Source: Lytechinus pictus (taxonomy: Eukaryota). Taken from it: a stretch of 64,000 nt of DNA. The position numbers and the translations under genes were made by a program. The stretch covers positions 372,001 to 436,000 of the forward strand of contig NW_026974158.1 of the NCBI RefSeq assembly GCF_037042905.1, read 5' to 3'. Below the pieces are notes generated by a model. That model was not told the origin of the DNA. It made no database searches and saw only the letters and a program-made list of their open reading frames with translations. Below, one piece after another: positions 23,418 through 29,695 of this stretch (position 1 is its first letter; each line of letters begins with the position of its first letter).

Positions 23418-25522
23418 AGGATGTTTATAATTTAACTTCAAATTTAAGGGCATATTTTTTGTGTGTTCACCTCGCTAATCATGCTAATTGTCGGAATTTC
23501 GCCTGATATGATTTAACAATTGTATTATATTTATTAATATAAATCAAGGTTTTGTTGTGTAAATGCTAGTGGTATAAATTAACATAATGAACTAATTTTA
23601 TCTGATGTAAATTGAAGAATTCACTATCAGAATTGCTAATTGGTACACCGCCCGTCTAAATAACGCTAGGCCATGGCTTCGACCCACGGCCGACTCAAAT
23701 GTCCAGTTTTTTATTTCGAAGGTTCGTAATTCTAAAACACGTAAATTGTCTATATTGCCCATACCTCGATGTTTATTGGTAGAAAACGATTAATTGTTAC
23801 TGAAACAAGCAATAGTACTGTGATAACGCTGTGTTCCCGCTTTACACTTAAACAAATTAAGAGGAGCAGCTGCTGTATACACTAGAAATAAATTGCACTG
23901 ATTGAAATTATGTATAATTAATTATATAATTCATGTTGTACAAAATAATCCGCCCTGTCACAAGCAATTATTTTTTGTCGGCAGTAAAGCAAAAAAATAT
24001 TAATTTTACAAAGTAAAATGTTAACAGGACAAACGTAAAACATCGGTGTTATCCTGAAAGTTGTGTTTAATCAGAGTAATCAGATGTAAAAGGTAATAAG
24101 TTACCATTTTGGCCTTGTGATGGCAGTATTACTGATTTGTATGATAGAAACCTATGTATTCAAATAATTCAAATAGGTAGGGTTATAATGTATTCATTTC
24201 TTGCAGGTCCTTTTGTTGTATCGGTCCCATGTTTTCGTAACAGGTGGAATAAACACTTTAAATTCCAAGACCCACACGAGGTCTATTAATTGTACACACC
24301 TAATTGCTGTGCACAGAGAGTAGGAGCAGTTTCATTTTTTTACTCTTTGAAAGAAGTTGTGCTCTGAAGAGCAAGGAAGAAATGACAATCATTTTCTTAT
24401 CAATTCGGATAAAGTATTCCCTCCACAATGGTGGCGAGTCTATTTAATATTTCAGCTATAAAAAAAATCTGATTCTTCAATATAGAAAGTTATGTTGGTT
24501 TGGATTTTTGCTCCAGATCTCGTTGTAATAATTTTTATCAATCAGAAGCCTGTTTTCTGTCAGAAACTTAGGCACACAATTACTTTGTGAATTTTAACAA
24601 TTTCCGGCATAAAATAATTATCACAATCATATTGCAGTGAAGGAATGTTGTATATCAGTATTTTCCAGAAATGAATTTATTTTTCTTTTTTGATTGATGC
24701 TTTTGTGCTGATAAATTAATATTATCTAGATATTTTGTTAATACTTATTAGATAATTACAAAGACATGTATTCATCAAATGATGTATAAAACGAATATTT
24801 AAAATGTAAAAAAAAAGGATTTGCCATTCGGATAATGGGAATCTATCAATTTTCAAGGGTCCTTTGGTCAACCTGCAGTCCTGTTTCAGTTTTTCTCGAT
24901 GTCATGCGAAAGGTCAAAAGCGCCTAAACTTCGGTGACGCCATTCTACGATAGACTTCGTGGATTCCCGATAACCCTCGACATACGTCATTCTACGTCAT
25001 CGTCATCGGTTTTCGAGGCTGCCATTTTCTCATCAACGTCATATGGACTGCGTCCAAGAAAAATCAGAGAAGTCCTTTCATTTAACAACCTCTTAGCAGT
25101 GTCCGGACAAGTCATTTTTTCTTCAATCCTTTACCGAATTATTTATTTTCCATTCCAAAACTGAAATTCTATATCGATAAAATCAAACTTATTTTTTTCT
25201 TCTTCTTTTGAAAGTCAATATTATTTATATGTAAAATCATGTTGCGTTGATTGTTGAAACAACCATGGAAACAAATCGCATTTGGAAGTGAAATTAAATA
25301 AATGTAATAATTAACTTTAAACAAAAATTAATCTTGTGCAGAGCAATTACTCATGCGTACTTCGACTACATTATAGCTCTTTTCACTAAAAAAAAAGATG
25401 CTTGGGGTATGTGAGGTTAGTTATGTGATTTGGGGTGATTGGTTACCAAATCGCTAGGTAAACAAAAATGCGGGTTGATCCTGACATGCCCTGATAACAC
25501 GGTATTAACTCGTAATAATTTA

Positions 25523-26080
25523 TGTAACAGGTCAAAAAATATAAGTACAAGAGAGAGAGAGAGAGAGATTTTTTATGTGTATGCAAAAATGATCTGTTGA
25601 GGAGGTAAATGAAAGCATTGAAGCATTATTTGTATTATCCCTGAAAGCATTGTATTTAAGTCATCCCTTTCAATCAATAAAAACTTTGAGGATATCCCTT
25701 CAGGGAAGTTCTCCTTGACCTTGGGTCAGTGAGGGTGATCTCACGATAGTTTTCTCGATAGCTATCTTGACACATGACCAAATGAGAGGGAAATAGACTG
25801 ACCACCTCTTGCTATGGGGAGGTCAAGATTATTTAGTTCTATTTAGATGATCTATTTGAATGTGGTTTGATTGGTCTTCAGACTGTCAAAAGCTGTGTAT
25901 TGGTGGCCGAACCATTAATTCGTCGACGATGCTATGTATGTGTCTAGCGCATGTGACTGCCAATCTGCATGTAGTTTTGTCCACCTTGAGAACTTAAGAG
26001 GGGGTTGATCTAGTTTCAAATTAAATGCCACATAAACTTGTATACGACTGTGTCATGCGTCATTTGTACCTACTGTTACA
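25523..26080 (+). mobile_element. LTR of an LTR retrotransposon (558 bp) followed by a primer-binding site
   Basis: Termini TGTAACAG...CTGTTACA, ATTAAA poly(A)-like signal at ~26020, and a TGG-initiated PBS 3 nt downstream. Confidence 0.75.
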
Positions 26081-26083
26081 AAA

Positions 26084-26101
26084 TGGCGTTGTGAGTAGGA
26101 T
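26084..26101 (+). other. Primer-binding site complementary to a tRNA-Ser 3' end
   Basis: TGGCGTTGTGAGTAGGAT, 18 nt, complementary (one mismatch) to the tRNA-like 3' end at 26367-26384. Confidence 0.75.
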
Positions 26102-26344
26102 AGTGGTTTTGAGAGTAGATGCCCGTTTTTGTATTAGGAACCCCCTCTTGAAGACGTAACTGATGCCTGAGGATGTACCTGTTGTCTGATGGAACTTGGT
26201 TGATGCAGGAGATCGACGTAGAGCGGAATGTTAGACTTATGCATACGCTGGATGTCAGATGCGCAAACTGGACCGCTGCACATCTTCCTAAGGGTAATAC
26301 AGTTATTGAGATATAAACTTCCAAAGAACTTACTTGGTGGTACG

Positions 26345-26384
26345 ACTCTTTCCCGCGTAGGTTCGAATCCTACTCGCAACGCCA
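26345..26384 (+). pseudogene. 3' half of a tRNA-Ser-like sequence with encoded CCA, fused to antisense LTR end
   Basis: TCCCGC-GTAGG-TTCGAAT-CCTAC-TCGCAAC-G-CCA: end of long variable arm, perfect T-arm, acceptor 3' strand, G discriminator, CCA; no 5' half present. Confidence 0.7.
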
Positions 26385-27647
26385 TTTTGTAACAGCAGGT
26401 ACAAATGACGCATTATACAGTCATATGCAAGTTTATGTGGCATTTAATGTGAGGGTAGATCAACACCTGGAAAAACCAAGCAAAAAGATTAGTACATGTT
26501 TATCATTTTTACATCATCAGCACAAACATTAATTAGCCATTTTATTCTTAAACAATTCGAACCTTAGATTATAAAATTGTCAGCAAGTTTAATGTTATGA
26601 CTATTCATCAAATAAACTTGTTTAATACATTAAATCGTCACATAGTTTTAACATGTTCATATGGAATATAGCATTATGATAATTAGTCAATAACATTTTC
26701 ATGACCTGCAATTTTGGGTCATCTTATATTTCTAATAATCATTCAACATAATTAGGACATTGCCCAACAATTGCCCAACAACATGACGAAGACATATGTA
26801 CACTCTCTGATGTTATAGATAATATCGAAAATATACATGATCAATTATCACAAAATATAAATTCGATATTTTTTTTTTAAATTGTCTTTGATCATTGTCA
26901 CGAGCGAAACTGCTCTAATTAACTTATTAATATACAGGCTACTTAACCATCCTAGATAAAAGACCAAAGGAGAATCAAGATATAAATGAAATGATCAATT
27001 TAATGTACACAACTTAATAAATCATTATCATCGATTCGTTGTGAACATAGGTATATTGGCAAATGGATATTCAATAAATATTTGCATATAGAAATCATAA
27101 AATGGAGTATATGTGCATAAGAGAAGGAGTATAAACATCATCGATTGTCCAAGTTTATGGGAGTAGATCGATCTGAAAATAGGCCTTTAAAATTAAGTTA
27201 CCGAAAGTCTTGGAAAGTTTATAAAGTGCTTGCTCAAACCTCAATCGGGTAAATGTGGAGTTCGAAGACGGAAGAGATCGGCGATCCACGACGACTACGA
27301 AGATGGACGATTATGACGAAGAACAAGTATGCCGATGATCGACGACGAAGAAGACGAGGAACGATTATGGAACGATGAAGACTCGATTGACGTCATCAGC
27401 GAAGACACGATGTTTTTCCTTTGCTAAATCAAACCATTGGTCAGAGAAAAAGTAAACGGAGTATATACAATAATATTAGATGTTTTGAGGAAAAGAAAGA
27501 AAGGGGTACATCAATAAAACCGATCAGACCGACCTGTTAGTTGCTGCATCATTGACGTCACTATCAAGGGGATTTTAAAATGACTTTAGAGAGTAGAAAT
27601 GAAAATGATAACGACGATAACGGGTTAAATATGACATTTCTTTATAC

Positions 27648-28404
27648 CCCTTACAAACAATTCCTGCAGTACTTTAGTGGTACTCTGTTGTACCTGTGTG
27701 ATACTTCTGTCGTACATGACGGTACCACAGAATTACGACAGGAGTTCTGTGGTATCACTCTGTGATAGTTCTGTCATACTTATGTGGTACATGAAAATTT
27801 GAACATTTCCTACAGTACCTTTATGGTACTCTGTTGTACTCGTGTGATACTTCTGTTGTACATGACGGTATCGCAGAATGACGACAGGCGTTCTGTGGTA
27901 TCACTCTGTGATAGTTATGTCGTACTTCTGTTGTACATGAAAATTCTAAAATATCCTGCAGTACTTTTATGGCAACCCTGCGATACTTCTGTGGTATATG
28001 ATATTTTTTTTAATTTCCTGCAGTACTCCTATTAAAGGCACTTCTATGGAAACCCTGTGATACTTCTGTGGTACATGAATATTTTGAAATTTCCTGCAGT
28101 ACTCGATCCTAATAAAGGCACTTCTATGGAAACCCTGTGATACTTCTGTGGTACATGAACATTTAGAAATTTCCTGCATGACTCATTATAGGCACTTCTA
28201 AAATTCTATGGCAACCCCAGTGCTGTACTTTCAAAATTTCCTACGGTACTTCTCATGCAGCCACCCCAGAAATATGACTGAAACTGTATCACAGACGTTT
28301 ATGGTGTATTTTCTGTGGTACATGAAAAATGTAGTTTCCTTCAGTACTTGCACGGAAGCCCTGTTTGTACCACAGACTAAAAAAAGTGTTATTTCATGTG
28401 AGGG
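27648..28404. mobile_element. Non-autonomous element (EnSpm/CACTA-like) composed of short GTAC-rich motif repeats
   Basis: Termini CCCTTACA / TGTGAGGG; many copies of GATACTTCTGTGGTACATGA and TTCCTGCAGTAC. Confidence 0.55.
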
Positions 28405-29098: not shown

Positions 29099-29695
29099 TT
29101 GAAGGGAAGATCAAGGCTAGAGATATTCATATATCTCAATAAATAGAGTAAAATTCACAGAGCAAAATTTTTAAAATTTGATCAAAATCGGATGACAAAT
29201 AACGAAGTTAAGTTAAATTTTAAGGATTTGCAATATTCCCGTGAAACAGTTCTATTTAGGCATGTCTCATGAATATTCATTAGGTGGGCTGATGATGTCA
29301 TATCCCATGTTCTTTTGTACATTATATGAAATTAGGTTTATTCAACATATTTCTACCAAGAACTTAAACAATTGGAATGACAACTGATTAACCGCATTAG
29401 TTATTAAATGCAGCAACTTCATCACAATGGAGACACATTTATACACATGTATTGAAAAAAAATGAAACAATCATAATTTCATATTTAACAAAAAAAAAGG
29501 AAAATGGGGATGTCGACACATCATCAGCCCACCAAATGAATATTCATGACGATGTGCACATATCTGTTTTCACAAAATATTAATAAACTTCGTTATTTTG
29601 TCATCCGATTTTGATGAAGTTGTTAGCATTTTGCTTTGTGAATTTCACTCTATTTATTTAGAATTAATATTTCAGCGCCCGGACCATCCCTTTAA
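29099..29695. mobile_element. Palindromic TTAA-ended MITE; related fragments at ~7452-7826 and ~59915-60340
   Basis: Inverted arms AATAGAGTAAAATTCAC...ATCAAAATCGGATGACAAA / TTTGTCATCCGATTTTGAT...GTGAATTTCACTCTATT; ends CCATCCCTTTAA. Confidence 0.65.

Follow-up and report, generated by a model that had tools for sequence, protein, structure and literature searches.

Plus-strand strong-stop DNA of tRNA-primed retroelements normally ends at m1A58 of the primer, and minor products read further (PMC13191261). Retroviruses pass on the primer copy (PMC7472051). The over-extended products P1 and P3 to P5 of HIV-1 reverse transcriptase (RT) likewise pass m1A58, running on to a modified base beyond it or as far as the tRNA 5′ end before they stop; by the account of that report, they are minor, stem from biochemical or cell culture experiments, and serve further only when they end at position 58, 55, or 54 (PMC13191261). 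In the genome studied here, in contrast, products ending at 47d, at 26, or at the 5′ end have been joined by apparent template switch and fixed in the germline, some with target site duplications (TSDs). DNA copies of mature tRNA with its CCA, linked to an LTR, are likewise on record for MLV and HIV (PMC12220202), although those cases come from cell culture and involve noncognate tRNAs, and the accessible portion of the report describes neither an inverted U3-U3 form nor modification marks. Ty3, which like the window element described below belongs to Ty3/Gypsy, makes repeated plus strands, the first of which copies into the primer tRNA, and transfer is possible through R-U5 (PMC5371799). According to that report, the Ty3 copy is 12 nt long and is not passed on (PMC5371799). 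Copies of 35 to 84 nt, in contrast, are fixed here.

Primer tRNA plus strong-stop DNA has also been proposed as the origin of tRNA-derived SINEs. The locus described below shares with that proposal the succession of tRNA, CCA, and U5 complement; unlike a SINE precursor, it has of the tRNA no more than the 3′ part, lacks a promoter A box, and shows no amplification. Among the papers listed in our search of the open literature, none appeared to describe modification-marked read-through of the primer in germline LTR copies, or U3-U3 products that had integrated. The present genome offers U3-U3 products that are inverted and flanked by TSDs, together with a series of copies of the same tRNA that extends over positions 26, 32, 34, 47d, and 58.

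Structure of the locus and its parent family

The window, that is, the whole 64-kb stretch of DNA analyzed here, is contig C38:372001-436000 in an 812-Mb assembly. As the initial annotation had recognized, it contains, in order, an LTR, AAA, an 18-nt primer binding site (PBS), an internal leader, the 3′ part of a tRNA-Ser with CCA, TTT, and an inverted LTR end. The forward LTR (25523 to 26080, + strand), with the ends TGTAACAG...CTGTTACA, is a Ty3/Gypsy LTR. It is preceded by TTTA (25519 to 25522), for which no right-hand partner was found; from the sequence and from the 4-bp TSDs that the parent family makes, TTTA is a candidate for the left half of such a duplication. The PBS (26084 to 26101, + strand) is a normal one for tRNA-Ser(AGA/TGA), with a single C-to-T change at a CpG, and leads into the 5′ leader of the element (26102 to 26331, + strand), which matches the leader of a full-length element on C6 at 80% up to 26320. 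The junction bases that follow (26332 to 26349) are of uncertain origin, the best match to the C6 element being an unconvincing 14/18. The tRNA part (26350 to 26384, + strand) corresponds without mismatch to indices 51 to 82 of the tRNA-Ser gene plus CCA; the annotation was right about the tRNA and its CCA, and its length is 35 nt rather than the approximately 40 nt given there. The last junction base, 26349, is T, at the place where the tRNA gene has a variable-loop C (index 50).

Beyond the tRNA lies the second LTR in opposite orientation. Its AAA spacer (26385 to 26387, − strand, reading TTT on the + strand) is followed by its last exon, or U5 end (26388 to 26466, − strand; 10/79 differences from the forward LTR), and by a retained LTR intron (26467 to 26895, − strand) that is broken off some 15 nt short of its donor site. 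There the arm is interrupted by an LTR of a different, tRNA-Pro-primed family (26896 to 27413, − strand; 79 to 82% to L091 and L095). The inverted arm extends well past the roughly 77 bp given earlier, as far as 26895, for a total of about 510 bp, and represents an intron-retaining form of the LTR (72 to 79% to L041, L043, and L050). Its apparent end is an intron acceptor: similarity between the arms stops at the AG of the intron (26468-26467), and we reject the earlier idea that 26464 is the 5′ end of R, since the boundary (26466/7) is this acceptor. The LTR family carries two putative GT-AG introns, judged by their boundaries, and copies with both, one, or neither exist. Both are precisely absent from the forward LTR (junctions near 25903 and 26002), where the long-form copies L034, L042, L043, and L045 have GT...AG segments at both places, and the second is kept in the inverted arm. 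The two introns were presumably spliced out in the forward LTR.

We looked for the U3 end that the inverted arm has lost throughout the window, in the 10 kb flanking it on either side, and in 10 kb of C28, and found none. ARAGORN detected no tRNA genes in the 64-kb window, and a search of the window against Rfam gave two matches, both at chance level. In sequencing runs, the window sequence was matched by two contig sets of one study, which are possibly its source, with no RNA set among the matches listed. A degenerate tandem repeat with 70- to 80-bp units adjoins the element at 27652 to 28333, and MITE-like nested inverted repeats (arms of 66, 25, and 32 nt) lie at 29134 to 29662.

The parent is a Ty3/Gypsy LTR retrotransposon family primed by tRNA-Ser. 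The window LTR has at least 76 matches in the genome, including at least eight near-full copies at 81 to 86%; 4-bp TSDs, which solo copies carry, flank L005, L007, L043, L044, L045, and the C6 element, with one mismatch in L008, and a purine tract precedes the 3′ LTRs. The full-length C6 copy is 12.4 kb long, has the TSD TTTA, and contains, in order, PNMA, RVT_1, RT_RNaseH, Integrase_H2C2, and rve domains; the window copy itself is without the coding part. These 76 matches, the TSDs, and the gag-pol element on C6 confirm 25523 to 26080 as the LTR of a real family rather than a MITE terminal inverted repeat.

The leader matches three places in the genome (the window itself, C28, and the C6 element), and the junction occurs genome-wide in two, the window and C28. 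The C28 junction copy is 98 to 99% identical, and 5.8 kb of surrounding DNA is likewise 97.8% identical. Because these surroundings are shared, we regard the C28 copy as an allele or segmental duplicate, not as a transposition. The window copy is a one-off and not a mobile family.

The source tRNA and its sister copies

The annotation had called for a genomic tRNA-Ser matching beyond the PBS, and tRNA-Ser(AGA) as well as tRNA-Ser(TGA) genes with the matching 3′ end sit in arrays on C5 and C154. The tandem arrays occupy C5:39.675-39.722 Mb and C154:26-54 kb with a 3.9-kb higher-order unit, and some of their tRNA-Ser copies have D-loop or anticodon-stem changes. Searching the genome with a T-arm/acceptor/CCA pattern at no more than three mismatches gave 87 matches, of which 80 lie in the gene arrays and end in AAA or ATA. 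The seven that end in CCA are the window, its C28 duplicate, L009, L037, and three tandem copies in L038. CCA is absent from 80/80 gene-array matches and present in these seven dispersed copies, and in the window it marks the tRNA part as a copy of mature tRNA. The window match reaches 17 nt beyond the PBS length. These 17 nt, the lack of an encoded CCA, and the mismatches of sister copies at modification positions (see below) support the earlier proposal of primer read-through past m1A58. Several features that define over-extended plus-strand strong-stop DNA are present: more than 18 nt of tRNA complement from the CCA, PBS register behind U5, and a cognate primer.

All four gene variants have C at the base next to the end of the window match (index 50), and a genome search for non-C at this index returned five matches, all of them CCA-bearing copies and none a gene. 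Index 50 is the middle of the variable loop and, from the cloverleaf, would be equivalent to human m3C47d; by analogy, the C next to the window stop is probably m3C. Human tRNA-Ser is known to carry this modification both at C32 and at C47d (PMC7969016), and the stop position in the window fits human m3C47d. Common RT barriers are m1A, m1G, m22G, and m3C, and in a human study C47d of tRNA-Ser-AGA was without misincorporation (PMC8062790). Mapping of three RNA runs to the tRNA-Ser gene yielded only 0, 0, and 4 reads.

Among the sister loci, L009 (C14) belongs to the same family as the window and consists of an LTR, an 84-nt anti-tRNA-Ser (indices 2 to 82 plus CCA), an 18-nt filler, and the U3 part of the LTR in inverted orientation, flanked on both sides by TTAT. 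Its mismatches to the gene fall at indices 26, 32, 33, 50, and 60; those at 33 and 60 are off-site, and A34 is kept, i.e., there is no inosine mark. A source for the filler was sought in the C6 element, where the best match (13/18) was not accepted. The word TGGTRGTA occurs in this filler (L009:2102-2119), at window positions 26335 to 26342, and at the matching place of the C6 leader; it may be shared by chance.

L037 (C5), from another family, has an LTR, an anti-tRNA-Ser(TGA) of indices 27 to 82, sense integrase-coding sequence, a polypurine tract (PPT), and a second LTR. Its only mismatches are C32>T and C50>T (C47d), and the copy stops before G26. Because the two LTRs are identical (456/456), C32>T and C47d>T can hardly be put down to age. 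The layout of L071 (C9) is the same as that of the window: an LTR end and an anti-tRNA-Ser(GCT) of indices 40 to 82 with a variable-loop C>T are followed by an inverted leader, PBS, and LTR at 96.8%. Its stop at index 40 does not adjoin any listed modification position. L038 (C11 near 33.12 Mb) consists of three identical 1,791-bp tandem units (L038:666-4984) with a copy of tRNA-Ser(AGA) indices 27 to 82 that also stops before G26 and has A58>T, C47d>T, A34>G, and C32>T as its only mismatches. This copy lies upstream of a TatD-domain open reading frame (ORF) with no LTR shown, and perhaps arose by a LINE-type template jump.

We scored positions 26, 32, 34, 47d, and 58, a list drawn from human and yeast work and general background. 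In the four LTR-linked copies (window, L009, L037, and L071), 6/11 traversed positions of this list are mismatched versus 2/201 others (Fisher P = 1e-7, for a list fixed after the first mismatches had been seen). Adding L038, with its three tandem copies counted once, gives 10/15 versus 2/253. The gene base is kept at only five of the 15 modification sites traversed, and four of these five are A58. The truncated copies also tend to end at such sites: three of four end one base 3′ of a modification position (rough binomial P = 9e-4), the window before C47d and both L037 and L038 before G26.

Proposed mechanism and alternatives

Given the observed parts and their order, the mature-tRNA origin shown by the CCA, a match that ends at index 51, and the uniqueness of the junction, we consider it probable that the window holds a one-off Ty3/Gypsy copy in which plus-strand strong-stop DNA ran past m1A58, stalled before the variable-loop C, and switched onto a leader of the same family. 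A normal tRNA-primed minus strand would have been made first. A PPT-primed plus strand would then have copied U3-R-U5, with the intron retained, and 35 nt of tRNA, and a stall one base before the variable-loop C would have ended it. The 3′ end of this plus strand would next have moved onto a plus-sense template, at a point some 250 nt downstream of the PBS, and copied leader, PBS, U5, and spliced R, resulting in a surrogate minus-strand end. A second plus-strand strong-stop DNA could have paired with that end, and completion of both strands would yield a DNA with two U3 ends for integrase to insert. Later, the copy would have received an unrelated LTR at 26896 and lost its right U3 end. Had the jump gone onto the minus strand, the product would be of the type represented by L037 and L094, internally deleted elements with direct LTRs. 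No microhomology was found at the template switch, and the 18 junction bases are unexplained.

Two U3 ends appear to be usable by integrase, since L009 and L066 have TSDs. The latter has inverted ends with TG...CA at the outside (the LTR start being read from L066 itself). The U3-terminus start, lost in the window, is present in L009, L037, and L066, and 4-bp TSDs surround both att ends in these loci (TTAT, CTGC, and GTAT, respectively). Because the window lacks its right U3 end and TSD, insertion by integrase is assumed for this copy by analogy with L009 and L066. Lacking gag-pol, a PPT, and a direct LTR pair, the window copy is predicted to be dead; we regard the locus as a by-product of Gypsy reverse transcription, and it shows no sign of function.

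Two separate events could also have produced this arrangement, which we think unlikely. An older copy with a spliced LTR would later have received, in the opposite direction, an over-extended strong-stop DNA or an L037-type element of the same family, by insertion or patch into the leader with the rest deleted. Read-through of the tRNA would be kept in such a history and the template switch denied. The arms resemble each other no more than any random pair from the family does (their 10/79 differences equal the family median pairwise distance; range, 1 to 16) and differ in intron content, so that their identity does not prove a single event; the tRNA part has 0/35 changes and the forward PBS 1/18; and the window has no TSD pair. 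All this suits two events, which would, however, require that the second copy strike a leader of just 250 bp belonging to the same low-copy family, with three leader matches in an 812-Mb genome. Moreover, one base is common to both window arms and absent from 17/17 other copies, and a same-family inverted arm stands beside a tRNA copy at eight loci (window, L009, L064, L065, L066, L071, L090, and L139), two of which have TSDs.

We give little credence to the idea that RT switched to the CCA terminus of some free, mature tRNA instead of reading its own primer, whether as a LINE-type chimera or by HIV-like tRNA-mediated recombination. Such jumps may have counterparts in L038, where the same tRNA-Ser part lies beside the TatD-domain ORF, and in the copies of nonprimer tRNA-Asp, tRNA-Glu, and tRNA-Gly reported in HIV and MLV DNA (PMC12220202). 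The window tRNA, however, is the family's own primer, it stands in PBS register behind the LTR end, and its AAA spacer is the same as at a normal PBS.

More doubtful still, and by now largely refuted, is a nonautonomous, self-priming hairpin retroelement family, which the annotation had raised as a new element should the layout be repeated, or a SINE precursor. In its favor, the PBS is complementary to the internal tRNA end, the two arms can pair (89% over 101 nt), and the layout does recur in the genome. The recurrences, however, differ in LTRs, tRNAs, and junctions, as independent accidents would, and no family shares the window junction, which apart from the C28 duplicate with its common surroundings is unique. 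A TRIM/LARD or self-priming family is further contradicted by the absence of dispersed junction copies, of a direct LTR pair, and of a PPT, and a tRNA-derived SINE by the single junction and by a tRNA part limited to indices 51 to 82, without an A box; an internal CCA, moreover, gives no free 3′ end. Least credible is an assembly or long-read fold-back artifact, or an ordinary MITE with inverted ends: inverted repeats can arise from reads, but these arms are 11% diverged, differ by an intron, recur with the same junction on a second contig at 98 to 99%, and are the LTR ends of a coding Gypsy family.

Copies of other tRNAs

Searching with a general T-arm+CCA+TG pattern produced 96 matches, compared with 4 for a reversed control, an excess that we rejected as a fossil count, many matches resembling SINEs. 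We chose 39 of the 96 by eye and fetched one satellite, which came from a search with 100 of 313 matches listed; a sampled tRNA gene could be aligned with 31 of the 40 and not with the other 9. L067 was rejected as a fossil and is probably a true tRNA gene with a chance CCA. Six of the 17 matches with non-A at position 58 were viewed and included two new tRNA copies (L139 and L143).

Among the loci with a same-family inverted arm, L064, L065, and L066 carry tRNA-Leu and L090 carries tRNA-Pro. TSDs were not readable for L064, L065, L071, and L139, and a 10-bp palindrome on both sides of L090 is ambiguous as a TSD. L139 is a 1,472-bp palindrome with arms 99.9% identical around tRNA-Lys(CTT) indices 3 to 73 plus CCA, the only tRNA mismatch being A58>T. 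It adjoins a 1,734-amino-acid BEL/Pao ORF and is located on C6 near 1003100 (L152:8529-10000 and L153:1-1553). A second, perfect inversion of 1,743 bp lies at L153:5138-8857.

Copies of tRNA-Pro begin at U38, adjoining the m1G37 position, in 12 of 18 cases. Because 8 of these 12 share one junction, 5 of 11 distinct junctions start at U38; two more include G37. In L080 to L097, several tRNA-Pro LTR families have a 39- to 40-nt PBS that ends at the m1G37 position and is almost mismatch-free, with downstream sequence 65 to 79% identical. The ten partial tRNA-Leu copies have 5′ ends scattered over indices 35 to 59, which no one site would explain.

Taken together, these loci incline us, with some reserve, toward a broader view in which (i) over-extended strong-stop DNAs would have been rescued repeatedly in the germline by template switching, in both Gypsy and BEL/Pao elements, and inserted as U3-to-U3 palindromes or internally deleted elements; (ii) the inserted copies would form a DNA archive of m1A58, m3C47d, I34, m3C32, m22G26, and m1G37; and (iii) the 39-nt PBS for tRNA-Pro would reflect routine read-through, with m1G37 as the regular stop. 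If this is true, RT side products known from test tubes and cell culture would have in vivo germline evidence and would be integrable with two U3 ends, and tRNA modifications in animals would become predictable without tRNA sequencing. Palindromes and lengthened primer sites in LTR families would also have a named source. What gives the locus its value is the set of sister loci: with them, genome sequence can be used to test both tRNA modifications and what becomes of over-extended strong-stop DNA.

Satellites of about 43 and 75 bp, composed of the T-arm and acceptor strand of tRNA-Leu with CCA and A58>T, occur in L098 (C5 18.946-18.949 Mb) and on C5 near 29.077 Mb and were possibly seeded by tRNA cDNA. 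Two further sequences followed by CCA could each be either a gene or a cDNA: a full-length tRNA-Asp-like sequence in L072 (C13:15816815) and a full-length tRNA-like sequence in L073 (C1:40798440).
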